Virus record (IMG/VR): IMGVR_UViG_3300005747_000147
Source: an uncultured virus (IMG/VR IMGVR_UViG_3300005747_000147)
Taxonomy: Duplodnaviria > Heunggongvirae > Uroviricota > Caudoviricetes
Length of the DNA: 64,000 nucleotides
Reading direction: 5' to 3' (one strand)
Positions 23,762 to 61,604 of the stretch are shown here, piece after piece. The translations under genes and the position numbers were made by a program. Under the pieces are notes generated by a model, which was not told the origin of the DNA, searched no databases, and saw nothing but the letters and a program-made list of their open reading frames with translations. Each line of letters starts with the position of its first letter. The first letter of the stretch is position 1.

Positions 23762-24312
23762 CTTGAGAACAAGATTTGTAACAGTTAAAGTGTCATACGA
23801 CACAGAAGAAACATGGGAAGTTACTTTACAAGAAGTAAAGGAATTATTCCAAATGATGAATAACTTAAAGCGTAATGCTATTATTGTAGAAATTGAAAGA
23901 GGTGTCAATAATGATGATGGACAGAACGAATGAGTTATTAGAAGAATTGCTGGCTATGATAGCAAGAAGTAATAAGATATTGATGATGGTAAATATCGTG
24001 AACATAGCAACCATTATAACAATAATTACGGTGGTAATATGAACGAATTGAAAGAGATGAAAAAGAAAATTAAGATGCTAGAAGATGAATTGGCCGAATT
24101 GTATAAAGACAATAAGGAACTTATTAAGATGTATAAGGCAATTCAAGAATTACAAGAACAACATGACGCACCTGCGGCTAAGTTTACATATTATTTGGGA
24201 TGATACTAATGTTTATATTAATTAAAATAATAATAAAATTTATTATAAATGACATTCATTCTTGCTATAATGATATGATTATGATGATAGATGATTGTAT
24301 GGAGGCTCAAAA

Positions 24313-30700: not shown

Positions 30701-30855
30701 TGTCCACAGCAGAATGGTTTGGCCTATTTATTTTCTTGATAGTAGTTTCACTATTATTCTTCGCAGCATTTGGTGGTTCTAATATCACTGAACATAGCGT
30801 AGATGAATATATTAAGCGACTGCTTGGAGATAATAACGAAGGCGAGAAAAAATGA
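30700..30855 (+). CDS. small single-TM membrane protein (51 aa)
   Basis: MSTAEWFGLFIFLIVVSLLFFAAFGG...; TAATG coupling with the previous gene. Confidence 0.6.
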   Translation: MSTAEWFGLFIFLIVVSLLFFAAFGGSNITEHSVDEYIKRLLGDNNEGEKK

Positions 30856-31092: not shown

Positions 31093-31167
31093 GAGCGTGT
31101 GGTGTAATGGATAGCATTTTGGCCTTCTAAGCCGAAGATACGGGTTCGATTCCTGTCACGCTCGCCA
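31093..31167 (+). tRNA. tRNA-Arg(TCT)
   Basis: Acceptor stem GAGCGTG/CACGCTC, D-loop AATGGATA, anticodon arm TTGGC-CTTCTAA-GCCGA, T-loop TTCGATT, encoded CCA, no intron. Confidence 0.93.
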
Positions 31168-34197: not shown

Positions 34198-34545
34198 TTA
34201 TTCTACCTCCATAATAAAAAAGAGTTCTAAATTTTCTGTTGTTGAAAAAGGCCCTAGTCCATCAAAATTATGTCGGACTAATAAATTACCTGCTGAATCA
34301 AATATCCCTGCTTCTCTAATAACTGAATTTGACATCCCTGAAGCATTTCCAGAAATACTTAAGTGGACTTCTATTACATTTTCATCTGATACAGTAGCCG
34401 AAAAAGAAACACTTGTTCCTAAATCTACATCTAATCCTGTTTGGGTAGAATATGTTGAGTTACCACCCAAGCCTATTTTACCATTATTGGCTAAACTACT
34501 TTGTATATGAGTTGCGATTAATTGTTTCATTTTGTCAGTTATCAA
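34198..34545 (-). CDS. tail tip/baseplate-associated protein
   Basis: IREAGIFD...GNLL motif of phage tail-collar proteins. Confidence 0.6.
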   Translation of the reverse strand: MITDKMKQLIATHIQSSLANNGKIGLGGNSTYSTQTGLDVDLGTSVSFSATVSDENVIEVHLSISGNASGMSNSVIREAGIFDSAGNLLVRHNFDGLGPFSTTENLELFFIMEVE

Positions 34546-37500
34546 AATTCTTCCTCCAATAGAGTTGTTGTTGTGCCGCCCGCCCCTACAAACCCAAGTG
34601 TGTAAGTACTTGTATTTAAAGGCCCGCCAAATCCTAATTTAGTGCCATCTATTGATGACCGCTTTTGAGCCACAAACTTAATTAATTTAAGATTAATGTC
34701 ATCTAGGAAACTTAATTCTATGTTATCTGGAATTTCTTCGGAATTCTCTTCTTCTATCTGTTGTTGTTTAATTTGTATTTCAGCAAACCTATCTTCTAAT
34801 TGCTTACTATATCTGCCTAATTCTAAAGTTATCATTCCTCTCATACTGTGAGTTATTTGAAGTACTAAAAATTCAGAAAATTCAATATTTTCTTTGGGAA
34901 AATCTAATGTAACAATATCTCCTGCCCTTAGTTGTCCTAATCCTTTGTGTCCAACCTGTACACTGACTTTAAAGTTAAACTTGCCATGCAATTTTAATAA
35001 TTCACTTGCTCTAGAATTAACTTCTTCTTGAGTAACAAGTTGCCTATCTGTTTCTCTCAATGATTTTACTCCTACTTTCTTGACGCTTCTAAGGTCTTTT
35101 CTTGTTCCTTTGTGGCTTTTACCTACTACTGTAACTGTATTAGCAAAACTATACATAGTTTTTAATTTTTGAATTCTAAATATATCTATATTGGTGTTTC
35201 TTGTTCCTATAATAAGACTTGGGAAGTTTGAAACAGTATTCTTATCTACAATGGTTAAAGTACCATTGACCTCTAATAGTGATTTATTTTTCTTACTCAT
35301 AATAAACTTAATTGCTTGGAATAAATTAACACCCTTAAAGTTTGGTGCTAAGAAGAAAGGATAATCTGCATTCTTACTTAGAGAAAAATCAATATTATTT
35401 TCTTGTAGCATTTCTTCTATTAAATCATCTGCTTCTCTACAAATAGTAACTTCCGAACCTATTATTGCTCTTTTAGCAGAAGAACTTACATCCCCTTCTA
35501 CCTTTAGTTCAATTAGTTCAGAAAAAGAAGGTATGCCTAACATTGTTTCTTGTTCGGAAATAGACATATAATATCCAATGCTTGTACTGTCTTTGGTAAA
35601 AGTAACACCAGTAACATTAAAGTTTTCCCCATCAGCAATACATAAAGTTTCTTTAGATGATTTATCATCCTTTATATTCCAAATAGCATCTAATTTATCA
35701 GGTGTTCTTATTACCACATGGTCGGAAGAAGAAACATCATTAGGGTCAGCAATAACATACATAGATAATACTGCTTCTCCTTCACCCGCTAATGTTCTTT
35801 TACCCGAACCTCCATTAACAAAGTAACTGTTTGGACTATCATACATAGAATTAGAATAAGGTTTCTTAGTATATCGAGAAGACATTTCGTTAAGTTTAAT
35901 ATCGCTTGGGCTAAAATCATACAGGCAAGTATGGTTTGGTTGTAATATTCTATAAAAAGTATCTGCGGCTACTAATGTATCATCAAGCGTAAGTATGTGA
36001 GTTTTAGTATTATTAGAAATATCTAATTCATGGGAAATAACATATAATAGTTTGTCCGGTGTCATACCGTTCAAACTTTCCCCATCTGAATGTGTACCTA
36101 AAGAAATAGTGTCGGAATCATTTTGTAAGTATTTTCCGTTTTCTGGGGCTAAATAACACCCAGTCAAATCAACAAAATCTAAAAAGGGTTGGTTGTTTGT
36201 TTCTATTGATACTCTTACAATAGTAGTATTATTTGGCCCTTTATCAGTTCCCATCAAATCATTAGTATTGTGTATTTTAAGTAGTGGCTTAAATCCAAAA
36301 ATTACTCCATCAGCGTCAGTTGCTAAATTACTTCTAACCGTACCGGTATCTTTTAGACTAGCATATACACCATTTAATGCAATTCCATATAATGAAAATT
36401 CGTCTTCTACTGTTCTATGGCTAATTCCGTTTATTCTTGGGCAACACATTCCAGTATCAGCATTGGCTGTTGTTCCATCTTCTATATTAAATCTATCGAA
36501 AATAACAGGCATAAAATTAGTATAAGTTAATTCTCCGGTTGTATAGCCACTTGCCCCAAAATTATTTCCTTCGTTTAATCCTCTTAAGAAACCAGCCCTT
36601 AATCTTTCTAAAACTAAAGACGGTTGCCCACCACCTGCCCCTTTTGCTGCCTTTGAGTCAGAGTCAATATCAATAGGTAGCCATAGATTAGGTTGCCTCG
36701 AATTGTTGTTTATTGTTCCCGCTAATGTATTGTTACTATATTTGGTATAAAAATCACTACCTGATTTACCGTATGTATTAGTGGTAACATCTGTCATTAT
36801 TGCACTTTTTAATAGGTGAATATCTTCATCAAAATTAATAAATGTGTCTTGTTTTCCGTGTCCTTTTATTGGCCCAACTCCACCATCGGCATTAGTTAAT
36901 TGCTCAACAGGAATAAAATATAATTGCGTATCTGTTCCCGAAGAAGCAACATAATGTTGTGCTACATTACTAGTATCTCTATATGTTTTAAATATTGCAC
37001 TATCACAAGTAATGTCAGTGGTAGAGACACTAGAAACAATTCCCATAAACCTACCTGCTCCATCTACTATGACATCATTTGCCGAAAGATTATCGGGAGA
37101 AATACTACATCGTATAACATTAGAGGAAGGTATAGAACGAGCATAAACTGGATTTGTATTATTCGTAACGCTACTTTTTCCATGAACAGCATATTGAAAA
37201 CTAGGCACTACTCTTTTTCTACTTGGTGGGTTTTCAGGGTCAAATTGATTAAATGCAAAATCATAGACAACTTCAGTTAATCTCATTAAAGAAAAATTAG
37301 TAAAGGTAGTATTTTCCGAACCTACTGATTTACTAGATGATTTTATTTTAGCAAAAGTGTGAGAAGAATCATTAGAAGATATTCTTGTAGTTTCACCTAA
37401 AACATTAGTTTTAGTATCAAATGAATCCGTTATGATAGGTTCATCAATTAACATTATGCTATACTCACTTAAATCCCTAGTATTATTTGGATTAAATAGA

Positions 37501-40500
37501 CTGTCTATTCTACTTCCAGAATAAGGTAACAAATCACAATTAGAAAATAAAAACATTCTAGATACTTTAGGGTCTTTATTGTCTAAAACATCTTCAGCGA
37601 TATAAGGGCTTCTACCTAAAGAGGTATCTGAGTATAATGTTGGATTTGGGGGAATATAAATACTATCAGTAGCAGTACTTATACCTTTACTAAATCTGAC
37701 TTCGTTTAAATATCTTGAGCCTAAAACCGAATCAAATCCCCTAGATTCGATTAAAGTATGCCCTTCTGAATTAGAGCCTGAATCAGTAAAGTTTGGCATT
37801 GTTGCCCCTACTCCAATAATATTATCATTTAATATTCCATCAACATAAAATCCCGGATTAAACCTATATGCAGTAGAATAGTATTTCACTTTACTTAATT
37901 TTTCACCATAAAAATTATATTCTTCCGACTCAGTAAATCCTGTAATGCTTGAATTCACTAAATTAAAATTACCTTTTTCTATACTAATTAGCCTATAGTA
38001 TGGACTACCAAACTTGTGAGCATAAGAAGACTTACCTAAATCACTATCATAACTCAATGGATAGTCAAAAACGCTTAATGTATTATCTGAAACTATGTTA
38101 GTATCAGGAGTATTAGCAGCACCGATTGTTGGGTGAAGTAATGCGACCATTTTTCCTGTATGTAAATGACCTGCATTCAAAAAGTTCAATTCGTGAGTTT
38201 TTTTAGATGATTCCCTAGTAGTTTCATCAACATTTAATATTGTTACTTCTGAATCTGCCGCTACATTTTTTATTTTTCTATCTAAATATAATGTAGTATA
38301 AGTGCCGCTATTAGAAGCACCAACAAAAAATCCAGCAAATGTTCCATCTACATAAATTGGACTTCCATAGTGCCTTCTTTGAGTATCTATTCCACCTAAA
38401 GCAACATGATAGCCACTTAAACTAGATGTTAATGAATTTTGAGGTGTTGAGCCAATAGCATTACAAGTCATTAAAATAGCAGTAGATATGTTAGTATCTA
38501 GTTGATTAGCGTAATTTATATCTACTCTACCTAAAGTCAAAGGAACATAAGGTGCTATTATAACGCTAGTATCAAATTTATTTCTTTTTATGCTAATTAC
38601 AGTAAAATCAATAAGAGTATTGATTGTATCGAAGTCTGCATGGGTGGTGTGAGTAATGTTATCTAATCTAGCCTGAAATGCTGAATCGCTTTTCATTTTA
38701 GTTGCAGAACTTAGGTAGTACCCTCTCGCTTCTAAATTAGTTGATAAAGAAGTAGAAACCAAAGAAGATGATTCGCTACCATCTTGCGCTGCTCCTGTTC
38801 CTAATCCAGCAACTCTTATATCTTTACCACTATTAAAATATAATCCTTTATTTGAAACTCCGTCTAAACTTGATGTAGACTCGACTAATGAATTTGAGGC
38901 TAACGCTTTATTCATTATATAGTTTTTACTGGATGACTTGTATAAAGTTACAGTTCCTTCTGTTCTTGGAAATTCTCCTATTACTACTGTGTTTGCAGAA
39001 GAAGTAGCAACTGTGGTTTTACCAATATAAGAAAGCATACCATTATCATATTTACCAAATAATATAGTACCTGCCGGTATAGTTGCAGTAGCAGCATTTG
39101 TTATATCCGCTGCTGTTTTTAGATTAATTGTTTTACTAGAAGCATCAAATGTTATTACCGCTTTTATTTCGTTATCGGAAGTGTCTAAAAGAGTAGCCAA
39201 ATTATTATATGGGCTATTGCTAGAATAAATAACATCTTTAGTAAATAAAGTATTTTTATCAACAATATTAGAAACAAGAATTCTTGATTTGCTGTTGGCA
39301 ACAATTTTCATAACATTAGTATTAGATTCTATATCGTTTTCTGTACTTTCTATTTCTCCATTTAATTTTTCTATTTCAATAGAATAAGCACCTATTGCTG
39401 AACGGAGAGCATTATTAAAACTATACGAAGAATTATTAAAATCAAGCGTCAAAAGTTTTTTATTAGCATCCGAAGAAATAACCTTTGCTTCAAGAGATTC
39501 TAAATTAGCATTACCCAATGATACATATAGCACTGACTCTCTACCGTCTATGATTGGATAATCAGTAAGTAGTGTCTTATCAGTTTGATTATATGCCCTG
39601 CGGTAAATAATATCATTTACAGATAAACTGTATGAAGTTGTTGTAAATGCAGATTCTTTTTCTAATCTTGTAAAGTCTTCAAATGTTATATCTTGAGAAA
39701 ATGCAGAATAAGAATCTATTGTTTTAACTATAAGTATTCTATCACCTACCTTTACTTCATCCCCCACATTTAAGAAAGAAGAAACATCAAATTCAGTTCT
39801 AAGAGTATATTCTGGGTGAGAAGTAATATCTGTAATTTTAAGAGGTAAAGGCATCCAACCGAAAAAGTCTGCCCTGTGTACTTGGTGTCTAATTTTTATT
39901 GGAGAAAAGTCTCCTATTTTTGTACTTAACATTCTTGAAGAATCAATTATAGTAAGTTCTGCATATCCTCCCCTTGCTCCTATGGATTCTTCAATAAAAC
40001 AATCAATAGTATTTTCTGTGGAGTTTGAAATAGTGGGCGAATAATCATAATATAAATATCTTTTAGGGCCAGTATAGTCAGGTGTAGAAAAGTTTGCACT
40101 ATCGGATTCTACATCTTCTCCTTCGGAATCTCTCCTAGCGTTAATAAAAGCAGAATCTCTAACAAATGGATTAAATGTATCTGGAGTAACACCTTCATTA
40201 CTTGTGTGGGTTAATGGGCTATCTTGGTCTTTTAATCTATCAATTAATTGAACCACCATAGAAAACCTACTATTGTCTATTACACTTGTACCAAATTCGG
40301 GAATTGTTGTAAAGTAACTATCTGAAGAAATAGTTGCAGAAGTAGTGCCAGTATTAAATTTAATTGCATATTTTTCATTGTGATTTAGTTGATTTTTTTC
40401 AGTTAAATGTTCATTAAAGAAATAAAACAAAGGTCTAGCACAGATTAGAGAATCATTTAACGATGATTTTATTCCTGCCGAAATAGCATGTGGGTAAATG

Positions 40501-41384
40501 TATGTATTTTTTGGGAAAGAATAAAGTTTAAATTTAACTCCAATTGGTATTTCATTACCTAATTTTGGCTCAAAGTCAAAAGAATCTCCCAATGAATCAT
40601 CACTATGTACTTCTGTAATTCTAGCAAAATGATGTTTTAAATAATTGTCCGAGTGAATAAGTACAAAATAATAATTATCAGTATTATTATTTACTTCATC
40701 TCTTTGAGTTGTACTAAAATTAAATCCAGTACTAGAATCATCACTATGGCATTTTATTCTAAATCCACTTGTGGTTTCTAAGTTTGATAGTTGTTGCCCC
40801 AATATAAGAGTAGCATTAGTATTTGTTGACAATGCACCATTATTAGTATTTATTATAGTAGAAGAAATTATTCTATTAATAATAGTATTATCTGGAAAAT
40901 TGTTAGCAGTAGTCTGAATAGACTGACCTATGAACATTCCCGAACTAGAACTTACAGTAACAGTATGTCCACCATCCACAGTAGTTTGAAAACTAGCCCC
41001 ACTTAATGTAGTAACATTTAATGCAGTAAAAGTAGGTTGGAGTTCAGTATTGAAAGAATTAGGATAAATAGCAGTAAAGTTATCATTTAAAGTAGCGGCT
41101 TCAATTACTTTAAATTTAGGATTAGTTGGGCAATTATAGGCTACTTTCTCAAAAGTCCTAGTTGTGGTGCTTGAATCACTAGCACTAGCACTAAGCGTAA
41201 CTGTTGTTGAAGTTGCTATTGCTGTAATTCTAGTTAATGCGGGGATTCCATCACCTGACACTATCATACCTACCCAAAGTTTACTAACATTATCGGAACT
41301 TAATGTTAATGTAGTGCTACCAGCAGTTGTACTAGAAAGAGTCAAAGTTGAAGGACTTCGAGAAATAGCCAGTATTTTTGTCAT
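34542..41384 (-). CDS. large tail tip/hub protein (2280 aa)
   Basis: Ser/Thr-rich beta protein; C-terminal hub-like signature (NTVTVVG...SVKKVG...LRAGDIV...LELG). Confidence 0.75.
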   Translation of the reverse strand: MTKILAISRSPSTLTLSSTTAGSTTLTLSSDNVSKLWVGMIVSGDGIPALTRITAIATSTTVTLSASASDSSTTTRTFEKVAYNCPTNPKFKVIEAATLNDNFTAIYPNSFNTELQPTFTALNVTTLSGASFQTTVDGGHTVTVSSSSGMFIGQSIQTTANNFPDNTIINRIISSTIINTNNGALSTNTNATLILGQQLSNLETTSGFRIKCHSDDSSTGFNFSTTQRDEVNNNTDNYYFVLIHSDNYLKHHFARITEVHSDDSLGDSFDFEPKLGNEIPIGVKFKLYSFPKNTYIYPHAISAGIKSSLNDSLICARPLFYFFNEHLTEKNQLNHNEKYAIKFNTGTTSATISSDSYFTTIPEFGTSVIDNSRFSMVVQLIDRLKDQDSPLTHTSNEGVTPDTFNPFVRDSAFINARRDSEGEDVESDSANFSTPDYTGPKRYLYYDYSPTISNSTENTIDCFIEESIGARGGYAELTIIDSSRMLSTKIGDFSPIKIRHQVHRADFFGWMPLPLKITDITSHPEYTLRTEFDVSSFLNVGDEVKVGDRILIVKTIDSYSAFSQDITFEDFTRLEKESAFTTTSYSLSVNDIIYRRAYNQTDKTLLTDYPIIDGRESVLYVSLGNANLESLEAKVISSDANKKLLTLDFNNSSYSFNNALRSAIGAYSIEIEKLNGEIESTENDIESNTNVMKIVANSKSRILVSNIVDKNTLFTKDVIYSSNSPYNNLATLLDTSDNEIKAVITFDASSKTINLKTAADITNAATATIPAGTILFGKYDNGMLSYIGKTTVATSSANTVVIGEFPRTEGTVTLYKSSSKNYIMNKALASNSLVESTSSLDGVSNKGLYFNSGKDIRVAGLGTGAAQDGSESSSLVSTSLSTNLEARGYYLSSATKMKSDSAFQARLDNITHTTHADFDTINTLIDFTVISIKRNKFDTSVIIAPYVPLTLGRVDINYANQLDTNISTAILMTCNAIGSTPQNSLTSSLSGYHVALGGIDTQRRHYGSPIYVDGTFAGFFVGASNSGTYTTLYLDRKIKNVAADSEVTILNVDETTRESSKKTHELNFLNAGHLHTGKMVALLHPTIGAANTPDTNIVSDNTLSVFDYPLSYDSDLGKSSYAHKFGSPYYRLISIEKGNFNLVNSSITGFTESEEYNFYGEKLSKVKYYSTAYRFNPGFYVDGILNDNIIGVGATMPNFTDSGSNSEGHTLIESRGFDSVLGSRYLNEVRFSKGISTATDSIYIPPNPTLYSDTSLGRSPYIAEDVLDNKDPKVSRMFLFSNCDLLPYSGSRIDSLFNPNNTRDLSEYSIMLIDEPIITDSFDTKTNVLGETTRISSNDSSHTFAKIKSSSKSVGSENTTFTNFSLMRLTEVVYDFAFNQFDPENPPSRKRVVPSFQYAVHGKSSVTNNTNPVYARSIPSSNVIRCSISPDNLSANDVIVDGAGRFMGIVSSVSTTDITCDSAIFKTYRDTSNVAQHYVASSGTDTQLYFIPVEQLTNADGGVGPIKGHGKQDTFINFDEDIHLLKSAIMTDVTTNTYGKSGSDFYTKYSNNTLAGTINNNSRQPNLWLPIDIDSDSKAAKGAGGGQPSLVLERLRAGFLRGLNEGNNFGASGYTTGELTYTNFMPVIFDRFNIEDGTTANADTGMCCPRINGISHRTVEDEFSLYGIALNGVYASLKDTGTVRSNLATDADGVIFGFKPLLKIHNTNDLMGTDKGPNNTTIVRVSIETNNQPFLDFVDLTGCYLAPENGKYLQNDSDTISLGTHSDGESLNGMTPDKLLYVISHELDISNNTKTHILTLDDTLVAADTFYRILQPNHTCLYDFSPSDIKLNEMSSRYTKKPYSNSMYDSPNSYFVNGGSGKRTLAGEGEAVLSMYVIADPNDVSSSDHVVIRTPDKLDAIWNIKDDKSSKETLCIADGENFNVTGVTFTKDSTSIGYYMSISEQETMLGIPSFSELIELKVEGDVSSSAKRAIIGSEVTICREADDLIEEMLQENNIDFSLSKNADYPFFLAPNFKGVNLFQAIKFIMSKKNKSLLEVNGTLTIVDKNTVSNFPSLIIGTRNTNIDIFRIQKLKTMYSFANTVTVVGKSHKGTRKDLRSVKKVGVKSLRETDRQLVTQEEVNSRASELLKLHGKFNFKVSVQVGHKGLGQLRAGDIVTLDFPKENIEFSEFLVLQITHSMRGMITLELGRYSKQLEDRFAEIQIKQQQIEEENSEEIPDNIELSFLDDINLKLIKFVAQKRSSIDGTKLGFGGPLNTSTYTLGFVGAGGTTTTLLEEEF

Positions 41385-46487: not shown

Positions 46488-48077
46488 TCACCCCTGTAAT
46501 ACCCAATGGGTAGTTGTAGTGCAATTGGTTAATGTTCTTGGCATAAGAGTTGCTTCTACCGTAACTGCACCCTTATCTTCGGGAACAGTCCATGTATTAG
46601 CACTTGTAAAGTAATCATCAAAAGCAAGTGTAAATGATTCTCCACTATCCTTAGTAAAGACTAAATCAATAGATTGGGAAGTATCATTATTTTCATCTTG
46701 GCTTAATAATTCAGTAAATAGTGTATCATCTGTAACTAAAGCAGTAATAGCAATCTCATAGGTTCGCTGTGCAGGAATACCGTCTTTGATACTTTTATTA
46801 CCAACACCTAAGAATCGCTTATCCTGTAAATTGTTGTTAATAGTTAAAGTAAAGTTTGTAATCTTTAAAAACTGTTGTCCATAAACACTCATTGTTCCAT
46901 CCGAGAAAAAGAATGGTTCTAAATGAGTTGGTTCAGCAGTAAAATTAAATAGGCTAGAATTAGCACTTTGTCCACCTCTTGATTCATAGCCGGTGCTTGG
47001 ACTCGCTAATGCTTGAGGAATTGGGGTAACTGCTCTAGTATTCAAATCTAAAGTCATTTTAATTTCTTCATTTTCATTAGCCGTCATTGTTAATGTATTA
47101 ACTCTATTTCCTCTTGCTACACGAACAAAGTTAATATCTTCGGAAGCAGCATCATTATCAGATAAAAAGTTATTTGTTACATCTTTTGTTAATGAATATT
47201 CTAAAGCAAAAGATGGCAAATGTGCGCCATTTGTTTCTTCAAACTTATATGTAATATATTGTCCAGTTGCAGCAACCGGATAAGAAGCAGAATCGAAGTT
47301 TGTTTCCGGTGCAGATTCAACAAGTGGGTTGATAGGAGGAACAATATGAACAGAAGGTGTGCTACCATCACCAACAGGATTTACTCTATGAATGAATGGG
47401 CCTTCATCAATATGGGAAGTATTGCTTGTTCCGTGAAAATATAATTTATGTGCGGCTGTTCCGGTGTGGTAATTAGTTGGGTGTTCAGAATCCGAAGTGC
47501 CTCCACCAAAACTCAATTGAGTACATTTACCTAAAGCGTAATAAAGCCAAGTTACCTGATTACATACTAATGCAAGGTTTCCTCCCGAAGCAGTTTCAAT
47601 GCCCTTATATTGATGAGTAAAGTTTCTTGTTCCTCCAAGAGAAAGATTTAATTGTTTCATTTCAACTTCAATGTTTGGGAAAGAAGCAGTTTCGACTAAA
47701 CCTAACCAATTATCAGCATGTAGTCTTGTTTTTCCTGTTCCGTCGTCATCGGAATCGGGTGCAGGACAAGGTGCGCCATATGCTCGCAATACGAAAGAAT
47801 CATCTGCAATAACCACAGCACTACCAGTAGCAGGTGTAATAGTGAAAGTATCATGGTCGTTTGTAGTAATAATGTGAGAAGAAGTATATACTCCGTTATC
47901 ATACCAATCTAAAGAACAACCAACATACATATCAGGCACTAATTGAAATTGTGCTAATGTTGATTGTAAAAATTGAATTGCTGTCGTGCTTGTAGTGGCG
48001 GGTTGAAAATAAAAGTCCACTTCTGGAACTAAAGTCATTGATGCGCCGCTTCCTAAAAATATACTGTTATCTACCAT
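46488..48077 (-). CDS. major tail tube protein
   Basis: LPSFALE, RVNTLTM, PFFFSDG, ITNFTLTINNNL, RTYEI; lies before the chaperones; no sheath gene, so siphovirus-type. Confidence 0.8.
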   Translation of the reverse strand: MVDNSIFLGSGASMTLVPEVDFYFQPATTSTTAIQFLQSTLAQFQLVPDMYVGCSLDWYDNGVYTSSHIITTNDHDTFTITPATGSAVVIADDSFVLRAYGAPCPAPDSDDDGTGKTRLHADNWLGLVETASFPNIEVEMKQLNLSLGGTRNFTHQYKGIETASGGNLALVCNQVTWLYYALGKCTQLSFGGGTSDSEHPTNYHTGTAAHKLYFHGTSNTSHIDEGPFIHRVNPVGDGSTPSVHIVPPINPLVESAPETNFDSASYPVAATGQYITYKFEETNGAHLPSFALEYSLTKDVTNNFLSDNDAASEDINFVRVARGNRVNTLTMTANENEEIKMTLDLNTRAVTPIPQALASPSTGYESRGGQSANSSLFNFTAEPTHLEPFFFSDGTMSVYGQQFLKITNFTLTINNNLQDKRFLGVGNKSIKDGIPAQRTYEIAITALVTDDTLFTELLSQDENNDTSQSIDLVFTKDSGESFTLAFDDYFTSANTWTVPEDKGAVTVEATLMPRTLTNCTTTTHWVLQG

Positions 48078-50555: not shown

Positions 50556-52493
50556 TTATGCTAATGAGTTCTCTAAAGTCTTAAATGCTCTTTTAGTTGA
50601 GTCTATAAATGATTTTACGGATTTAATATCCCCGCTATTGTATTTTTGCCCATAAACAGACCTTTGTTTATCTTTAGTGTCAAGCCCAATATTTGCGGCT
50701 TTTGTTTCTATTCTATGAGTAGCATTGACTAAGGAAGGAGATTGAAAAGTGTAAGTAGTGGTCGCCTTTTTTTTCTGCTTATCCATTATTTCGTTTCCCT
50801 TTTTGTCTTTCTTTCCAGTTTTATATTCCACATATTTAGTTATAATTTTCTCTATTTTTATTTCTATTTCGTATAAAGCCCCATAGTCTCTAAGGGCTTC
50901 TGAAAAAGTAGATTTTATATACGGTTTCAACTTCCTTTTAAATGCTTCTTTTGCATCTTTATTGCTAAAAGCAGTCGAAGTAACAGTAACATTAGTTTTT
51001 TCTTTTAAATCTTCTAGTTTTGATTGTACATATTCATCCATTGGGTCAGTAACACTTTCTTTTCGCCATTGTTTAAGTTTTTCTATTTCTGACTTCATCC
51101 ATGATTTGAGATTTTTTACCTCACCAATATATGTTTTATAAAAGGCTTTACCTTCTTTCCTAGAATCGCTTAACGCTTTAATTCTTTTTACTACTTTTAA
51201 CATTTCGGTATTAGCAACCATATTAAGAAGAGTTACTTTTTTTCCATCTACTATCCCTAAATCATTAATACGATTAAAGTTAGGAAGAATGTATTCTCCC
51301 CTAGAGACTATTTTTTTTCTTGTGCCTTTTGGTTTTTCAATTGTCTTTTTTTCACCAGTTTTAGTTTTATAAGTAACTTTATTTTCTCTCCATTTTGGAT
51401 TTTGAGGTTTTCCGAATGGAGAGAAAAATTGATTTATTATTTTTTGTTCTTCTTTATTGTATTGAGTTTCAAATTTATCTGCTGTTTGTATTTCTCCAAC
51501 CGTTAATTCGGTATCTATCACTTTTAGTTTATTAGAATACAGCATAATATATGAAGATATTGTATCATTTAATTTGGAATTGGTTAATCCTGTCATTTTT
51601 GTAGCATCTAGAGATAATCCACCACTAAACTTAGCACTTAATACTTCTTTATTTGGGGTTTTGTTTAAAAATTGAGTTTCAAATATATTGGAGGTTTGAT
51701 TTCCAGAATTATAATTTTCAGCAGTTAAAGAACCCCCCGATATTTCCTGCCCTCTATAACTATCTTGTTTTTTGTCTTTGATAGAAGTAGTTTCAATTCC
51801 ACCTCTTCCTTTTCTTTTGACAGAACGAGATTCCATCAAAGAAATAGGGGCATATCCTAATTCTTTAAGGTAAGCAATCTTGCTATTAGGCATAGGGTTT
51901 TCAGGATTATTAAAATCTAGTTCTTTAAATCGTATAGAGCGTAACTCAACAATAGTTACTTTTCCTTTTTTCCCTTGTATTTTGTCTGGGCCTAAAACAT
52001 TTACTTCGGTACTACTACCCTTTTTTTTACCGATATATTTACTGTATTCTTGGAATTTTTTATCGGGCATCCCTTTTCTTTTTTCATCTTTTGCTTCTTT
52101 AGAAGTATCAGGATTGTTTAAGGTAAGAGAAAGATTACTATTTAAATCTTTAACAGTGAAGTTACCCTTAGTGTTTTTTAGTCGCTCTAATGCTTTTTTC
52201 CCAGAACTACTCAATTCTATATTATGGGTAGCAATTATTTCTTCAAGGGGAGTGGTTTCTATTGAAGTTATTGCTGAATTATATATTTTAATGTATTGGT
52301 TTTTGTTTTTACCTTCCCAATTTAATATATTAACTTGTTCCATTTCATCTAAAGATAACAATTGTGCTATCTTCCTATGTGATTTATCTTTATTTACTAA
52401 ATACCCACGAAGTAAAAACAGAACCATTTCTTTTTCAATAGTATTTTTATCTAAAGAAATTTCTTGGCCCGTTCTTGAGTATTTGATTTGCAA
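50556..52493 (-). CDS. Lys-rich hypothetical protein (645 aa)
   Basis: Long ORF with a TTG start and no recognisable motif. Confidence 0.7.
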   Translation of the reverse strand: MQIKYSRTGQEISLDKNTIEKEMVLFLLRGYLVNKDKSHRKIAQLLSLDEMEQVNILNWEGKNKNQYIKIYNSAITSIETTPLEEIIATHNIELSSSGKKALERLKNTKGNFTVKDLNSNLSLTLNNPDTSKEAKDEKRKGMPDKKFQEYSKYIGKKKGSSTEVNVLGPDKIQGKKGKVTIVELRSIRFKELDFNNPENPMPNSKIAYLKELGYAPISLMESRSVKRKGRGGIETTSIKDKKQDSYRGQEISGGSLTAENYNSGNQTSNIFETQFLNKTPNKEVLSAKFSGGLSLDATKMTGLTNSKLNDTISSYIMLYSNKLKVIDTELTVGEIQTADKFETQYNKEEQKIINQFFSPFGKPQNPKWRENKVTYKTKTGEKKTIEKPKGTRKKIVSRGEYILPNFNRINDLGIVDGKKVTLLNMVANTEMLKVVKRIKALSDSRKEGKAFYKTYIGEVKNLKSWMKSEIEKLKQWRKESVTDPMDEYVQSKLEDLKEKTNVTVTSTAFSNKDAKEAFKRKLKPYIKSTFSEALRDYGALYEIEIKIEKIITKYVEYKTGKKDKKGNEIMDKQKKKATTTYTFQSPSLVNATHRIETKAANIGLDTKDKQRSVYGQKYNSGDIKSVKSFIDSTKRAFKTLENSLA

Positions 52494-52504: not shown

Positions 52505-53170
52505 TCACATTAACCATTTAGCCCAAGCCGCACCTTTTTGAATGGCTGAACCTAAATGTAATCCGCTTGAAGGTGGCTCATAACTCATTTGATTTTGAGC
52601 ATCAATCCAATATGGCCTTCCATATCCGTCTGTTCCCGATGGGGGAATAGGATAACCCGAACCATTATTTACAGCCCCTTGCATTTGTTGGTATTGTTGT
52701 GTTTGTCCGGTTAATCCGGCCATAGCCATACCTGCTGTTGGCCCTGCGGGGTTCATTCCTCCCATGTTTCCACCTCCGCCAAATCCTTGAGATTCGAGAT
52801 ATTGTTGCTTCGCAAGTTTGCGTTGATTTACTACTTCTGAGTTAATGGCTGATTGAAGAATCCTTTGAATATCTAAATCAATGTTCTCTTGAGTGATTCT
52901 TTCGTACTCCCTCATAGCATCTGCATCAATGGTTATTTTTGAACCAGTAGTGCTAAAAGATAATTTTGCTAGCATTTGGCTAACTACTCTCTCTACTACA
53001 TCTTCCATTAATTTCTCAAATGTAGTTAAAAATTGCTCGCCGTGATATTGAAAAAATTCTTCAACATGATTATCCTGTAAAGATAATAAGTTATTCACAT
53101 TTTTAAACTGTTGGTCGTTTTGTGCCTGTACTGCACCCATAACTGCTTTATTGCTTGTTCCAAATACCAT
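52505..53170 (-). CDS. helical protein with Gly/Gln linker and C-terminal amphipathic helix
   Basis: Ends LGSAIQKGAAWAKWLM. Confidence 0.7.
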   Translation of the reverse strand: MVFGTSNKAVMGAVQAQNDQQFKNVNNLLSLQDNHVEEFFQYHGEQFLTTFEKLMEDVVERVVSQMLAKLSFSTTGSKITIDADAMREYERITQENIDLDIQRILQSAINSEVVNQRKLAKQQYLESQGFGGGGNMGGMNPAGPTAGMAMAGLTGQTQQYQQMQGAVNNGSGYPIPPSGTDGYGRPYWIDAQNQMSYEPPSSGLHLGSAIQKGAAWAKWLM

Positions 53171-53172
53171 GA

Positions 53173-53802
53173 TTATTCCTCTCCTTTACTATTAGTTACC
53201 ATTGATTGTAGTCTCTTGGTATTAGTCTCTATCTCGGCTATTAGGCGAATTACTTCCGCCATCTCGCTCTCATTATCCTTGACAACGGGGGGCGTTATAA
53301 TCCATCCGGTTGATGTCAGCGACAAAACATCTTCTCTCGATAATGTTTGTAATGGGCCACTCTTTAGCATTTGTGGCACTTTAGGTCTAGGAATGAATGC
53401 TTTGAAATCTAATCCATGTTCGTCTGCTAATATCTGTTGTTGTAACATCTCCATTTGTTTATGAAGACTAGCATGTTTAGGACAATAAGTTCCTCTCATC
53501 GGTCTTCCTTTAGTAACATTATCTAATGGAATAGGTGGGCGCAAATAGTCTCCTGCTTCCCAAATATGGTGCATTCCACAAACGACGCATCTATCCTTTA
53601 GGTTAAACTTATATCCATACTTTACAATAAATTTTTTCTTCTCAGGTAGTAATACTTTTTTAATCTCTTTTAATTGCTTCTTAGGTTTTAATGCAGTAAA
53701 AGAGTATTCTGCGATAGAACCTGCGGCCCTAAACTGTTGTAGTTTAGGTAAAAATATATTCTTTGCTTGTGGGCTATTTATTAAATTCGGTTGTTGATAC
53801 AT
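53173..53802 (-). CDS. Zn-finger protein with C-terminal coiled coil
   Basis: CVVC...CPKH. Confidence 0.65.
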   Translation of the reverse strand: MYQQPNLINSPQAKNIFLPKLQQFRAAGSIAEYSFTALKPKKQLKEIKKVLLPEKKKFIVKYGYKFNLKDRCVVCGMHHIWEAGDYLRPPIPLDNVTKGRPMRGTYCPKHASLHKQMEMLQQQILADEHGLDFKAFIPRPKVPQMLKSGPLQTLSREDVLSLTSTGWIITPPVVKDNESEMAEVIRLIAEIETNTKRLQSMVTNSKGEE

Positions 53803-53811
53803 AGTTATTCC

Positions 53812-54480
53812 TCAGTAATCTTTTATTAGAGTTGTAATTCCTTTGTAAACCATTTCGGGGTCTGACTTTGCCGAAACAATATATTTGAATGTGGGTATTC
53901 CTTTATCATTTAATTGTCTCATTCCATACTTAAATGGTTCGTAAATATCATGCTTATCAATTGATTGTCCTTCTCTTAGTGGGTATTTTTCTCCCCATAT
54001 ATCATATTTATTTGCCCAAATACTTACTGCCATAGGATAATCTACTTCTTTTTTTCTTTTACCATTAGGCCAAACATTAGATGTAATTGTATCTACTAAA
54101 AATTTCCATGCTAATTGGTGGTCTAAGTTGGATGGTGAGTCTAAATGCCTGTGGTCTATCATAAAAATAACATATTTTACTTTACGAGTTCTCATATCTT
54201 TAACCCATTCTTTCCAATACATCGCTTCTCCGCCAATGTCTGCACTTTTTAATGTGTGAGAATCTCCATCAAACTTAACTACTTTTCTACTCGCTCTTTC
54301 CAAACCAACTGTTCTTTTATTAATTTGTTGGACTTCTCCTCTTGTTCTTAATTGGTAACTTAATGTTGTTTTACCAACCATAGTAGCCCCATAAACTCCA
54401 AAATTAATAGCATGTACTCTTTTATAAAAGGCTACTACTGCTTCTGTAATCAAGATGGCAAATCCTGCCATTACTGACAT
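53812..54480 (-). CDS. Arf/Sar1-like small GTPase
   Basis: G1 GATMVGKTT, G2 RTVG, G3 DIGG, VIFMID, G4 WANKYD, G5 SAK; hydrophobic N-terminal helix. Confidence 0.85.
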   Translation of the reverse strand: MSVMAGFAILITEAVVAFYKRVHAINFGVYGATMVGKTTLSYQLRTRGEVQQINKRTVGLERASRKVVKFDGDSHTLKSADIGGEAMYWKEWVKDMRTRKVKYVIFMIDHRHLDSPSNLDHQLAWKFLVDTITSNVWPNGKRKKEVDYPMAVSIWANKYDIWGEKYPLREGQSIDKHDIYEPFKYGMRQLNDKGIPTFKYIVSAKSDPEMVYKGITTLIKDY

Positions 54481-54702
54481 TTAATGACCTCCAAATATAG
54501 ACTTAAAAAAGGAAATCAAAGAACCCATAATATTGACATCGAAGACACCCATTATGTTTCCTATAAGTAATGCTGATAATGTGGCACAACTGCCCCAAAA
54601 CCATGCTCTCATTCTCATAAAAAAAATATCAGCAGAATGCGCCCTTGATTGATTGTATGCGTAATCCGAGTCGGAGAATCCCATTATGTCTCCAAGAACC
54701 AA
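54481..54702 (-). CDS. small membrane protein
   Basis: Hydrophobic segment AWFWGSCATLSALLIGNIMG plus an amphipathic tail. Confidence 0.65.
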   Translation of the reverse strand: MVLGDIMGFSDSDYAYNQSRAHSADIFFMRMRAWFWGSCATLSALLIGNIMGVFDVNIMGSLISFFKSIFGGH

Positions 54703-54712
54703 TTAAATCACC

Positions 54713-55126
54713 TCATTGTTGAATAGTAGCCAAAAACTCGTTTGGTATTTGACTCTCTTCAAATGAAGCGGTTGAATTTTCGGGATAAACATTGTTCCAT
54801 GAATCCCGCTTATTTACTCCGTATTGTTTCATGCTTTCACGAAGTTTTTGTTTAATTTGTTGTTCTCTAGCAACCCTTTGAAAATGTGCTTCAATTTGCC
54901 TATCTAGTAATTTAATTTCAATTCTATCGTTAAGAGATAAGTCGAATAGTGCTTTCATAACCATAATGCCACCAACTGTAATCAGCCCAAATAAGACCGA
55001 GTGTGCTAATGGGCCATAAGGAAAATTAAGACCATATGCTGAATAGAAATAAACATTTGCCCCACTGACTGTTCCGACAAATAAAATTGTCATAACTAAT
55101 CGAGTATCGTTATTTAATGCCGCCAT
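54713..55126 (-). CDS. membrane protein (2 TM plus coiled coil)
   Basis: Two N-terminal hydrophobic helices followed by a charged coiled coil; GAGGTGA SD. Confidence 0.7.
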   Translation of the reverse strand: MAALNNDTRLVMTILFVGTVSGANVYFYSAYGLNFPYGPLAHSVLFGLITVGGIMVMKALFDLSLNDRIEIKLLDRQIEAHFQRVAREQQIKQKLRESMKQYGVNKRDSWNNVYPENSTASFEESQIPNEFLATIQQ

Positions 55127-55135: not shown

Positions 55136-55414
55136 TCAAGCAAACTCAATAGACACGGCTACTGCACCACTGACTTCTTCAAAGTATAAGCCATTAGTGC
55201 ATAATACACCATGCATGTCAAATTCAACCGTTTGATTAGCAGATAAAGTCATTCTTGCGATTTCTTTACCACTAGCGGCTGTATTGTCATATACTTTAAT
55301 TACTGCCGCTGAACCACCGACTTCTGTTGCATGAATGCTAATTAGTTTAACTTGGCCTGTTACAACCAATTTATTTTCTGTTAAAACACCGCTACTTCTA
55401 CAACCTGCCGCCAT
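55136..55414 (-). CDS. small beta-rich virion protein
   Basis: 92 aa; IKVYDNTAASG...GVLCTNGLY. Confidence 0.6.
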   Translation of the reverse strand: MAAGCRSSGVLTENKLVVTGQVKLISIHATEVGGSAAVIKVYDNTAASGKEIARMTLSANQTVEFDMHGVLCTNGLYFEEVSGAVAVSIEFA

Positions 55415-55471
55415 AATACCACTTCGCTAATTGGAGGAAGTCGCCCCCTCCTATTTAATGTGTCGGTCTAT

Positions 55472-59081: not shown

Positions 59082-61604
59082 CTATTTAGTAGGGAGGGTC
59101 AATTCTTTATACCTATCCTCATAGATATTCCACACTCCCCCATCCGATTCATCATCAGCAGGAGTTTGTTTATATCCCGACCATGCTAGCCACATTTCCT
59201 TGTTATCTACTTTAAGCCTTCTAATATTAAACTTAGTTTCAAACTTATTCCCTTCTAAGAAATATTCGTGATAACCATGCTTTTGTATTCCTAATCTTAT
59301 GCTACCTTCATCTAGAAGTTTTCTCTTAGAAATGTTATTAGCAATCATAGCAGGGAATTTTCCGGCTTTACCAAACAACTCAAATATATCGCCATCATCT
59401 TCTAAATCAATAAGCCAATTCAATGTTTCGTCTTTAAGTTTAATAACTAAGTTTAAATTATCATCATCTCTAAGATATAACTTAAACTTACCATCTCTGT
59501 ATTCCTTTGGGGTTTTATATTCCTTAAGAATATTTTCTTCTTGTAGTATTTTATCATCTTCCGAATAAAGTTTATTGGTCTTTTCATCATATGAAATGCC
59601 ATCTCTTTGCTTCATCCAGTCTTTAAGTTTATCTAATTTACTTTCTAGAATATCTTCGTATAAATCCTTGTGGTTCTTAACTAAGAAGTTATGTAGTGCT
59701 TTGATAGTTTGTGGGCCTTTCGTTTTCATAAACTGAAAACCTGCCACTGTTAAACGAGATTGCTTGGTTTTCATAATTTCTTCCGCTTGGTGTTTCCATA
59801 AATCCAAATCTACTAAAGCGTTTTTAGCCATCAAATTGTCTTCCTCGAAACCATAGATAGTAAACCCATCCATGTCTCCTTTAATTAGAATAGAGGCTTC
59901 TCCGTGAATATGGTCGGTTATTGTAATCCCTTTTTTAAGGGCTTCAACATTATAATTTAATGATTTTTCTCCGTCATTGGATAGCATCTCAAGAGTAATC
60001 AATTTGTCGGGGTGTCTTGCTTCGGGTAATTCTATAACCTTAGCGGAGTGAACGCTGTATATGTCGCCCTTCTTCTTAACATGGTCTATTTTTACTCTCA
60101 CTATGCTTCCTAAGTCAGCACTGATTTTAGTGTTAAGAGCCTTACCAACAAGCATATAGGTTTTACCTTCTATTTCTTGATAGTGTTTTCCTTCTCCTTC
60201 TGTTGGCCCTGCACCCAAAGAATAAGCGTAATTACCACCAGATGATTTCTTATCAAGAACAATCAAATCTAAATCAACAAAACTCTTCCATTTAATCCAT
60301 TTAGGGTTTTTCTTAGTCCCAACATAGTAAGTAGATGTAGAGTCTTTAATGACCACTCCCTCTGCTGTCGGCATTTCCATTATTGCCCTAGAGTATTCTT
60401 CAATATCTTTAATAGAATCTGCTAAACGAGTATCTTTCTTAGAAGGGAAAGTTAAATCTTCACTTGAATGAATAGAGTAATTATTAAACATTAATTGCAT
60501 TCGCTGAGTTAAAGTATCTTCTAGTAGCGATTTTTCATTATGTCTTAGTAAATCAAACATGTGCATTCTCAATCTACCGTCTGGATTTTTATCATTAAAA
60601 ACATGAGAAATAGTTTCTGCTCTATCAAGTGCTTCATCCCCCTTAAACAATAACAAAGAACCATCTAAAATACAATCACCGAAGTGTTTCTTTTCTAATT
60701 CTTCTACTTGTTTTTTACACTTAGAAGTAATGTCTTTACCATCAAAAGAGAACACTTTAACCTTCTTATCTATTTTTTGCATTTGAATACGAAGCCCGTC
60801 ATATTTTTCTTGAACATAATATTCGCCACTAAAACCTTTAAGTTCTTTAATATCATCTATTTCAAAAATACGATACATTGGTTTATTAGGAACGATAAAA
60901 TCAGACTGAGATTTCTCTTCACTAGATTTCTTTTCTTCGGCTTTCTTAACAGGCAAGCCCTCAATTTCTTCTAATTCACTCCATTCACCCTTATCATTCT
61001 TAGATAAGAATATTAACTCTAATAGATTCATCGCTGCCTTCACTTTAGATTTGACTTTGTTTGAGTCTTTTCCATCCCCATAATGTTCTATAATATACAG
61101 GTCTATGTCATCCGATTCTAGGTCAAGACCCTTAAGACCCTCCGTAATATCGTCGGGTTCGATGTCTTTAACAGCGTAAATGTCTGGAGATAGTGCTTTA
61201 CTGTCTTCTCTAATAGCATAGTGAACGAATTTAACCATGTTACCCGTTGAAGATAACAATGCTTCTAAGACTTCACCTTTGAATCTTTTAGCGAAAGGGT
61301 CATCTATGGATTCGGAAGAATAGCGAAGTTTCTTTATTCCTTCAAATACCTTTTCAGCATTTTGTGATTGTGGGTCTTTAACATCGTCTGCTTCTAAATC
61401 AGAAATCTCAATAAAGTTCTTTAACTCATTTGAAAGTTGATTATTGTTTTCATAGGCTTCTGTAATACCATCTATTGCACTACGCCACTTTGCCCCGTAT
61501 TCTTTAGGGTCTGTGCGAGCAGATAGATAAGCCACTCTTACTTTTTCAAATAAGCGAACAATTTCATCCGATGTGGACTTATCCTTTTCAAGAAGATAAG
61601 CCAT
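59082..61604 (-). CDS. multidomain protein with an ATP-dependent ligase core (second ligase)
   Basis: Motif I QEKYDGLR, ILDG, MFDLL, EGVVIK, WIKWK, OB-like region; long N- and C-terminal extensions. Confidence 0.85.
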   Translation of the reverse strand: MAYLLEKDKSTSDEIVRLFEKVRVAYLSARTDPKEYGAKWRSAIDGITEAYENNNQLSNELKNFIEISDLEADDVKDPQSQNAEKVFEGIKKLRYSSESIDDPFAKRFKGEVLEALLSSTGNMVKFVHYAIREDSKALSPDIYAVKDIEPDDITEGLKGLDLESDDIDLYIIEHYGDGKDSNKVKSKVKAAMNLLELIFLSKNDKGEWSELEEIEGLPVKKAEEKKSSEEKSQSDFIVPNKPMYRIFEIDDIKELKGFSGEYYVQEKYDGLRIQMQKIDKKVKVFSFDGKDITSKCKKQVEELEKKHFGDCILDGSLLLFKGDEALDRAETISHVFNDKNPDGRLRMHMFDLLRHNEKSLLEDTLTQRMQLMFNNYSIHSSEDLTFPSKKDTRLADSIKDIEEYSRAIMEMPTAEGVVIKDSTSTYYVGTKKNPKWIKWKSFVDLDLIVLDKKSSGGNYAYSLGAGPTEGEGKHYQEIEGKTYMLVGKALNTKISADLGSIVRVKIDHVKKKGDIYSVHSAKVIELPEARHPDKLITLEMLSNDGEKSLNYNVEALKKGITITDHIHGEASILIKGDMDGFTIYGFEEDNLMAKNALVDLDLWKHQAEEIMKTKQSRLTVAGFQFMKTKGPQTIKALHNFLVKNHKDLYEDILESKLDKLKDWMKQRDGISYDEKTNKLYSEDDKILQEENILKEYKTPKEYRDGKFKLYLRDDDNLNLVIKLKDETLNWLIDLEDDGDIFELFGKAGKFPAMIANNISKRKLLDEGSIRLGIQKHGYHEYFLEGNKFETKFNIRRLKVDNKEMWLAWSGYKQTPADDESDGGVWNIYEDRYKELTLPTK

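Follow-up and report, generated by a model that had tools for sequence, protein, structure and literature searches.

Does an archaeal tailed virus carry its own small-GTPase machinery for acting on the membrane of its host? The question is raised by a five-gene cassette on the minus strand (nt 52505–55126) of a 64,000 nt stretch of DNA (hereafter the window) from the uncultured virus IMGVR_UViG_3300005747_000147 (IMG/VR; Caudoviricetes). The window is from a magrovirus-like archaeal tailed virus, since its gene content agrees with what has been published on magroviruses, a group of tailed viruses attributed to Marine Group II archaea and described as having a thermosome gene, and an odd ligase in the structural block (PMC5434244). 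A sequence-only reading of the window had proposed that five contiguous genes, designated A to E here, form a GTPase-driven module for membrane remodelling or egress. All five open reading frames (ORFs) were found where that reading had placed them, tightly packed on the minus strand. They appear to specify a small-GTPase membrane switch akin to Arf and to the archaeal ArvABC system, accompanied by four partners of unknown family.

The product of gene A (nt 54713–55126, 137 aa) has two hydrophobic segments and, at its C-terminus, a helical tail rich in K and R. Gene B (nt 54481–54702, 73 aa, TTG start) comes next and has one transmembrane (TM)-like segment. Gene C (nt 53812–54480, 222 aa) specifies a Ras-superfamily small GTPase (P-loop, TRAFAC class) whose closest family is Arf. 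The product of gene D (nt 53173–53802, 209 aa) has a conserved Cys/Cys/Cys/His set and a long C-terminal helix, and that of gene E (nt 52505–53170, 221 aa) has a helical core and a Gly/Gln/Met-rich stretch, much as the earlier description of a helical protein with a Gly/Gln linker had it. The intergenic gaps across the cassette are 0–10 nt, the stop codon of gene B abuts the start codon of the GTPase gene, and a GAGG-type Shine–Dalgarno sequence lies at the usual distance before each of the five starts.

The GTPase carries the motifs GATMVGKTT (G1), DIGGE (G3), NKYD (G4) and SAK (G5). In an alignment of 24 family members, residues G31, G36, K37, T39, D81 and G84 are invariant while N157, K158 and D160 are nearly so (at least 90% of sequences), and the GTP-binding site is, judged from these residues, intact. 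The position after DxGG is occupied by E in the window protein and by Q, H or A elsewhere. An AlphaFold (AF2) model (predicted local distance difference test (pLDDT) 77.7, predicted template modelling score (pTM) 0.75) shows a helix at residues 3–22 followed by a Ras-like G domain. Foldseek returned at least 500 matches to the model at E ≤ 1e-3; among the matches listed, with E-values near 1e-8, all 48 are Ras, Rab, Arl or G-alpha chains, groups that were not separated by this search. An exhaustive structural search placed Arf6 first (Z 17.6 and 17.4), followed at Z 17.0–16.3 by mimivirus Rab, an Asgard RagA-like protein, the beta subunit of the signal recognition particle receptor (SR-beta), Gs-alpha, Sar1 (16.7) and Arl2; the scores of Rab, Rag, SR-beta and G-alpha lie within 1 Z of Arf6, and that of Arl2 just over one Z below it.

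Sequence profiles point in the same direction. The Pfam Arf family (PF00025) scored 16.8 bits on the window GTPase, under the gathering cut-off of 22.3, with MMR_HSR1, Ras and SRPRB also returned below threshold and, in an NCBIfam scan of the cassette, only TIGR00231, again below cut-off. Across the 24 family members Arf was the best family (13 at E ≤ 1, best 3.1e-6), and SRPRB matched nine (best 8.1e-5). When the family profile was compared with PDB sequences, setting aside P-loop-only matches (RecA fusions, EF3), the best hit was GerdArfR1 (8OUN, 1.2e-7), then Arl8A (5.2e-6), Arl8B, IFT22 and Arl3 (2e-4); Arl proteins make up 11 of the 33 matches, and the alignment with 8OUN reaches into the N-terminal helix. 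The latter structure is described as that of an Asgard Arf-family protein (bioRxiv 10.1101/2024.02.28.582541). The nearest named neighbours in the ESM Atlas are prokaryotic clusters with Arf annotations, a lead only. The label 'Arf-like' given by the sequence-only reading is thus reasonable as the name of the nearest family, by profile and by predicted structure, for a protein that scores below the Pfam cut-off for membership of it.

All 24 members begin with a hydrophobic extension of 22–31 residues that ends in basic residues. In the window protein the first 19 residues have a mean Kyte–Doolittle hydropathy (KD19) of 1.86, and the helix at residues 3–22 combines a KD of 2.03 with a low hydrophobic moment (0.19). 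Over 18 residues (KD18) the extension scores 1.5–2.2 in the window's group, where it looks TM-like and is not clearly amphipathic, and 0.7–1.4 in more distant groups, so that the helix fits either a membrane anchor or one that would insert conditionally. Among the proteins encoded between 46.4 and 61.6 kb, the TM hydropathy threshold was passed only by A, B and the N-terminus of the GTPase, and the membrane association proposed earlier is supported by hydropathy in these three cases.

Are the five genes kept together in other viruses? Relatives of the GTPase were confirmed in IMG/VR (341) and in a large protein collection (388), some labelled 'GTPase SAR1 family protein' by the Joint Genome Institute (JGI) and one being a hypothetical protein of Poseidoniales virus YSH_150918. 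The 80 closest loci (L001–L080, the close loci) were examined, 64 of which have enough flanking DNA for a five-gene test, and all 64 carry the five genes in the same order. Within the more divergent half (L023–L080), the median identity is 80% for the GTPase, 79% for E and 75% for B, compared with 69% for the prohead protease, 66% for the major capsid protein (MCP), 60% for D and 58% for A. The GTPase, at 80% against the 66% of the MCP, is therefore under tighter constraint than the capsid protein.

More distant relatives were detected with phmmer in a collection of 1.84 billion representatives, which gave 64 matches at E ≤ 1e-3 and no sign of cellular families of the size of ArvA. Several of the matches are full-length distant relatives (228–264 aa, 28–40% identity); the ten full-length distant representatives that were looked up are all metagenomic, and four of their clusters include contigs of 85–104 kb. 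A set of 84 loci was then assembled around two distant lineages, the GTPases of which are 25–34% identical to that of the window (alignment A1). Hidden Markov models (HMMs) of the window's families found the GTPase in 84/84 of these loci, D as the very next gene in 67/84 and E in 2/84, while those of A, B and the MCP found nothing (0/84). The layout around the distant GTPases is nevertheless the same: a 143–272 aa protein with hydrophobic segments, a protein of 72–99 aa, the GTPase, a protein of 256–357 aa, and a Gly/Gln/Met-rich protein of 190–272 aa. The positional counterpart of gene A has the same architecture, and that of gene B was found at 72–99 aa in 74 loci. Profile–profile comparison (hhalign) of the window families with the distant positional families gave probabilities of 100% for C (2e-38), 97.1% for D (7.5e-11) and 95.6% for E (1.2e-8), and lower values for A (46%, 2e-4) and B (14%, 1.9e-3); all off-diagonal pairs were at or below 1.5%, so the families match on the diagonal only. 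The kinship of A and B with their distant counterparts is weak at the sequence level and leans mainly on position, size and architecture.

The flanks of the cassette differ between these groups. In L161 (nt 4250–5785) and L164 (nt 3820–5481) a thermosome gene (Cpn60_TCP1, 1e-133 to 1e-140) lies directly upstream on the same strand, whereas the thermosome gene of the window is 42 kb from the cassette, within the replication block. Other distant loci have GP88 and a D12 methyltransferase (L085), GP88 (L081) or a 1994 aa protein (L123) at this place, and in records G004, G006 and G007 the MCP gene is about 22–23 kb from the GTPase gene. In L164 the stop and start codons of C and D abut or overlap. 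The location between capsid and neck genes noted in the earlier reading therefore holds for the window's own group and not elsewhere, the cassette being either separated from the MCP gene by some 22 kb or adjacent to a thermosome gene. Since gene order is kept while the flanks change, the cassette is very probably a real, self-contained unit, mobile as a whole, and not part of a head–neck block. The co-conservation that the sequence-only reading had named as its test thus extends, in the same order, through close and distant relatives.

A sixth small ORF (80–88 aa, 1–2 TM-like segments) usually follows the E-like gene in the distant groups (L081:7619–7885, L085:9312–9566, L123:9336–9578); the window's group has a Lys-rich protein, p645, at this place. 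In 23 of the 80 close loci (L017, L032, L043, L048, L052, L056, L068, L071 and others) extra ORFs or spacers occur at the B/C or C/D junction. ORFs of 55–191 aa were called in 21 of the 23 (e.g. L043:6666–7235, L068:5459–5995), and L008 and L041 have only a gap. The inserts may be mobile and aimed at the region's most conserved gene; as candidate homing endonucleases, 16 of them were scanned and gave no significant Pfam family.

Records chosen by their MCP alone provide a view that is not biased towards the GTPase. Seven of 14 such records carry the GTPase gene, among them each of the four with a completeness of 90% or more. The seven that lack it are less complete (six at 64–76%, one at 81%) and may merely miss that region. 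Taken with the synteny, this strongly supports the five genes as a core gene set of magrovirus-like viruses. Outside this group the GTPase was scarcely found. A tblastn search of 50,697 phage records gave no match, and 185,579 species genomes gave a single one, L165 (NZMJ01000024.1, 12.2 kb), which is 79% identical and binned in a metagenome-assembled genome of the alphaproteobacterium Maricaulis; this contig is probably a mis-binned magrovirus fragment.

What might the four partners contribute? The sequence-only reading had given them the roles of receptor, GEF/GAP or coat, which stay conjectural. None of A, B, D and E belongs to a recognisable family of GTPase-activating proteins (GAPs), guanine nucleotide exchange factors (GEFs), coats, holins or lysins, and the fold of D is likewise without a match. 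Gene A had been described as a two-TM protein; of its two hydrophobic segments one is strong (KD19 1.98, residues ~38–62) and the other only marginal (1.53, residues ~9–28). The K/R-rich tail comes after these segments, and no Pfam family matches the protein. Gene B fits its earlier description as a small TM protein, with one TM-like segment (KD 1.68), and carries a conserved N-terminal MGFSDSDYAYNQ.RAHSAD motif. Both proteins have the generic shape of holins (small size, TM segments, charged C-terminus), with no match to a holin or any other family in Pfam or PHROGs and no lysin gene present.

In gene D, C72, C75, C107 and H110 are conserved, and the spacing to the second Cys changes from CxxC to CxxxxC in distant relatives. 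This set is a probable zinc site, in a protein that the sequence-only reading had labelled Zn-finger/coiled-coil; a GTYCPKH motif is also present. The 784 relatives of D are exclusively unnamed and metagenomic. No fold was assigned to the protein: its model is of moderate quality (pLDDT 64.9), the best structural match has a Z-score of 4.7, and neither a SepF-like nor a longin-like match was found. The C-terminus of gene E (GYPIPPSG...AAWAKWLM) is conserved in the window's group only; the protein has no relative in the PDB, and the ESM Atlas returned only its own viral cluster (0.82). Profiles of D and E gave nothing better than an E-value of 0.1 against PDB sequences, and no meaningful match was obtained for either in Pfam, NCBIfam or PADLOC. 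PADLOC gave no matches for A–D or for two neighbouring proteins, p92 and p645 (see below), and chance-level ones only for gene E (E-value 0.018–0.024); PHROGs gave no structural or assembly match for the cassette except, at chance level, phrog_14074 for gene E (E-value 0.026).

A predicted complex of D with residues 23–222 of the GTPase, GTP and Mg (score 0.00, mark 0.32) gives no answer on binding in either direction. In a single study, four RNA libraries yielded short contigs that include parts of each of the five genes and span the A/B and D/E junctions. They are possibly derived from DNA, and give no strand, ends or timing; they are consistent with expression, as weak evidence of it.

Among known systems, the nearest analogue appears to be ArvABC (OapABC), which is described as present in Haloferax volcanii and in other Euryarchaeota and DPANN archaea (PMC10927574). 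According to that description, ArvA is a small GTPase with an N-terminal amphipathic helix, for which Arf (PF00025) is the closest Pfam family and PF01926 the annotated one; its deletion abolishes extracellular vesicles and its overexpression raises them, and ArvB (DUF2073) and ArvC (a Zn-ribbon protein and proposed GAP) are encoded downstream. By this published account of ArvA, its reported Pfam matches mirror those of the viral GTPase family. Both systems would combine an Arf-like GTPase bearing an N-terminal helix with small partners in an operon, one of them zinc-binding (in the virus, by prediction), and the cytoplasmic membrane of archaea is where ArvABC acts and the viral cassette would act. 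The viral cassette differs in being virus-encoded and in having two extra integral membrane proteins. Between the viral and the Arv partners there is no homology detectable at the sequence level. DUF2073 (ArvB/OapB) did not match D or E in Pfam. The OapC family (PF09845), which was found in three of 14 control genomes (Haloferax volcanii, Methanocaldococcus and Methanosarcina), gave no match for D or E at E ≤ 0.1 and none in six-frame translation of the nearest virus record, G001.

Comparison with other GTPases gives partial likenesses. With the Arf family the viral protein shares the N-terminal helix, the DxGG switch II motif, NKxD and SAK, and it differs by an insert of about 25 residues before G4. 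The Trp before DxGG and the Gln after it, which we take to be Arf features, are respectively absent from and replaced by Glu in the window GTPase. SR-beta resembles it in having a hydrophobic N-terminal anchor followed by an Arf-like G domain (Z 16.9 for 2fh5_B, 15.9 for 7obq_v), but PF09439 scored 12.7 against a 25-bit cut-off and no partner resembling SRX was recognised (D matched no longin-like fold); archaea are not, to our knowledge, known to have SR-beta. The giant-virus GTPases (mimivirus Rab, 5xc5; Z 17.0) are likewise virus-encoded members of the Ras superfamily, but they belong to viruses of eukaryotes and imitate the trafficking GTPases of the host, whereas the host here is archaeal. 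With holin cassettes the locus shares small proteins of 1–2 TM segments with a charged C-terminal tail (A and B) and a late region, and it is set apart by having no adjacent lysin and no holin family, and by conservation far above that of typical holins. We know of no counterpart in holin systems to three soluble proteins that include a GTPase.

How, then, might the cassette work? The Arf-like GTPase would sit on the host cytoplasmic membrane through its hydrophobic N-terminal helix and cycle between nucleotide states. Its GTP-bound form would organise or release A and B, both small and integral to the membrane, while the zinc-binding D and the Gly/Gln-rich, helical E would serve from the cytoplasm as regulator or effector. 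The membrane would thereby be deformed or opened, most likely for late virion release; the host, as far as we know, has no rigid cell wall. The genes, their joint conservation, the GTPase motifs and fold and the hydrophobic segments are observed, whereas localisation at the membrane, any contact among the five proteins, and when and to what end they act are inferred. That the GTPase is a membrane-associated switch seems fairly likely, whereas the membrane machine taken as a whole is put forward tentatively and with some doubt, and egress or lysis as its purpose is rather doubtful. A bolder version holds that magroviruses encode their own Arf-type switch, which times and executes virion release by opening or vesiculating the membrane of a host that has no cell wall: the membrane-inserted, GTP-loaded GTPase would gather or unlock holin-like A and B, D would regulate in a zinc-dependent way and the Gly/Gln-rich E would be the scaffold. 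We regard this version as unlikely.

In favour of a membrane machine is the presence of the cassette, in the window, in an operon on the late, structural strand, with tight spacing and Shine–Dalgarno sites. As the sequence-only reading had noted, no endolysin or holin family is recognisable in the window (46 ORFs scanned with Pfam, of which 28 from the minus-strand late block were also scanned with PHROGs). A 2024 review states that archaeal tailed viruses lyse their hosts, describes the main players in this egress as 'still completely uncharacterized', and speculates that enveloped viruses might exploit host ArvA (PMC10791045). Several observations weigh against this interpretation. Lysis genes usually evolve fast, whereas this GTPase is conserved above the capsid protein, which fits a core role in assembly or host interaction at least as well. 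D and E belong to no recognisable GAP, GEF, coat or lysin family, and A and B to no holin family. Three other small TM-like ORFs, in the plus-strand block (nt 16472–16909, 145 aa; nt 23893–24042, 49 aa; nt 30694–30855, 53 aa), could be the holins instead. The thermosome gene has been placed in the replicative cluster of magroviruses (Philosof et al., PMC5434244), and its adjacency to the cassette in L161 and L164 argues against an obligatory late, structural context. Because the N-terminal helix of the distant groups is under the TM threshold, anchoring may be peripheral or conditional, and because the residue after DxGG varies, the catalytic mechanism, and even hydrolysis, may differ between groups. 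Finally, the RNA-library contigs may be DNA carry-over and cannot show timing.

Very high conservation, above that of the MCP, would also suit a morphogenesis factor. The cassette might be a membrane-anchored, GTP-controlled assembly platform, or a chaperone-linked checkpoint in head assembly, packaging or head–tail joining, and its place in the window's group, where one tight operon has it between the capsid genes and those of the tail, the thermosome chaperonin that adjoins it in L161 and L164, and the GTPase in four of four near-complete genomes are all in keeping with such a role. The distance of about 22 kb from the MCP gene in other groups is not, nor is the result of the PHROG search, in which the chance-level phrog_14074 match of gene E was the nearest to a structural or assembly family, and we know of no tailed virus that needs a membrane-bound small GTPase for assembly. 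This alternative is judged distinctly unlikely. The structural block of the window's group would also suit virion-internal proteins, with A, B and E packaged to form a membrane conduit at entry and the GTPase either packaged or loading them. Hydrophobic segments and low-complexity regions are features of phage ejection and pilot proteins, and A and B have the former and E, in its Gly/Gln regions, the latter. The cassette is, however, outside the structural block in other groups, it has no significant PHROG structural match, and we know of no precedent for a packaged small GTPase; an ejection role is judged very improbable.

A different possibility is that the target is the host itself. The GTPase module could rewire a host membrane process (targeting, division, vesiculation or transport) or block superinfection, and the SR-beta-like architecture (SRPRB matches in nine of 24 members, SR-beta at Z 16.9) and a genomic context that varies, even to a place next to the replicative-block thermosome gene, would both be expected of it, while high conservation would fit a conserved host partner. 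Host takeover or exclusion is nonetheless quite improbable in our estimate: neither Pfam nor the structure search with D recognised a partner of the SRX, longin or roadblock type, matches to families of defence or anti-defence were absent, and in the window's group the genes lie in a late structural operon. It could lastly be argued that the five proteins are independent and their order is kept by descent only, as the unrelated ORFs tolerated at the B/C and C/D junctions of 23 of the 80 close loci might suggest. But the order survives down to 25–34% GTPase identity while both flanks are replaced, and stop and start codons abut or overlap at B/C in the window and at C/D in L164; the absence of any joint function is extremely improbable.

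The region upstream of the cassette bears on how it is transcribed. The sequence-only reading had drawn attention to a hairpin and a TTAAATA element shortly upstream. Both exist and are conserved in relatives, but they precede another gene, p92, and not gene A. The promoter-like element (nt 55433–55467, minus strand) consists of ACCGACA, then CATTAAATAGG, which includes the TATA-like TTAAATA (nt 55452–55458), then a GC hairpin (nt 55433–55451, GGAGG-N9-CCTCC), and lies 19–53 nt upstream of the p92 start codon. Among 39 distinct upstream regions the motif ACCGAYA-N3-TTAA[AGT]AGG is nearly invariant, and a small GC hairpin begins at the same place in most of them. The stems vary with pairing kept (GGAGG/CCTCC, GGCAGG/CCTGCC, GAGGG/CCCTC, ATGGG/CCCAT), and in per-sequence folds 21 of 25 divergent upstream sequences fold at ≤ −4 kcal/mol; RNAalifold gave no single consensus structure for the hairpin, as the register of the stems shifts from one subgroup to another. 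As a recurrent late promoter CATTAAATAGG was rejected, with one exact match in the window and 42 sites at up to two mismatches against 39.9 expected. A scan for promoters and terminators of bacterial type gave 19 promoter-like sites against 26.3 expected, the model being bacterial and uninformative for an archaeal virus.

The first gene after this element, p92 (nt 55136–55414, minus strand), encodes a small beta-rich protein with weak matches to PHROGs of unknown function. It is present in all 80 close loci, while in the distant loci its place (position −3) is variable and p92 is outside the cassette. Since the promoter-like element precedes p92 and not A, p92 probably shares the transcription unit, which is likely to run p92-A-B-C-D-E and onward.

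The 64 kb window as a whole is divided into two divergent gene blocks. Their junction, near 31 kb, is marked by a tRNA-Arg gene (anticodon TCT, nt 31093–31167), and the GC skew changes sign there, at about 31–32 kb. The plus-strand block is a replication set of archaeal type, with genes for ribonucleotide reductase, a TFIIB-like protein, a thermosome subunit (Cpn60_TCP1, 2.3e-45), an ATP-dependent DNA ligase, a replication factor C (RFC)-like clamp loader, a split family-B DNA polymerase, and nucleases of the PD-(D/E)XK and ERCC4 types. The polymerase is encoded by two ORFs (nt 20940–22577 and 24295–25197) about 1.7 kb apart, and the gap contains intervening ORFs (e.g. nt 22574–23263) as well as the 49 aa TM ORF at nt 23893–24042. 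Split polymerase genes are mentioned for magrovirus group B1 (Philosof et al.).

The minus-strand block specifies a prohead protease, an HK97-type capsid protein, a tube-like protein, a tail chaperone, a tape measure protein and a second ligase-domain protein. Upstream of the cassette are the genes for the MCP (SU10_MCP, 1.2e-6; phrog_24667, 4.7e-22) and the prohead protease. The sequence-only reading had placed the cassette between the capsid and neck genes; four small ORFs (p88, p113, p115 and p92) intervene between the MCP gene and gene A, and no family identifies neck genes downstream, where p645 has no family and p372 matches only phrog_17057 (unknown function). Further on in that direction, tail genes first become recognisable with those for the tube-like protein (nt 46488–48077), the tail chaperone and the tape measure protein. 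The p645 protein (nt 50556–52493) is very rich in Lys (K and R make up 123 of its 645 residues) and diverges quickly, with 27–86% identity among close relatives and no detectable counterpart in L023–L080, and its gene is flanked by two well-conserved genes. An 840 aa protein with an ATP-dependent DNA ligase domain (nt 59082–61604; PF01068, 2.8e-23) is encoded within the structural block; it is the window's second ligase and agrees with the 'ligase embedded in structural module' of magrovirus groups A and B. A tail-region ORF of 2280 aa (nt 34542–41384) matched no Pfam or PHROG family, and the 1994 aa protein encoded just upstream of the cassette in distant locus L123 is of comparable size.

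No description of such a cassette was found in the literature on Poseidoniales and GTPases or on archaeal viruses and small GTPases, and the word 'GTPase' is absent from the main texts and supplements of the magrovirus papers searched (for PMC11706807, from a part of the supplements that does not include the annotation tables). By published account, few viruses in the surface ocean are as abundant as magroviruses (PMC5434244). A core cassette with a GTPase that exceeds the capsid protein in conservation offers a concrete, clonable target for the question of how archaeal tailed viruses leave their hosts, and may help to explain how these viruses act on, or exit through, the host membrane. If an Arf-type release switch is indeed what the cassette encodes, it would be without precedent among viruses of prokaryotes and would supply the egress mechanism that is missing for archaeal tailed viruses; it would also mean that Arf-like membrane remodelling is used by viruses in Euryarchaeota, outside the Asgard–eukaryote line. 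Should the cassette serve assembly or host takeover instead, a virus-encoded membrane GTPase module whose four partners have no known fold would still be new biology. Small-GTPase membrane systems, known so far from eukaryotes, Asgard ArfR and haloarchaeal ArvABC, would be extended to the viruses of archaea, a finding that bears on the spread and diversification of such switches before eukaryotes.

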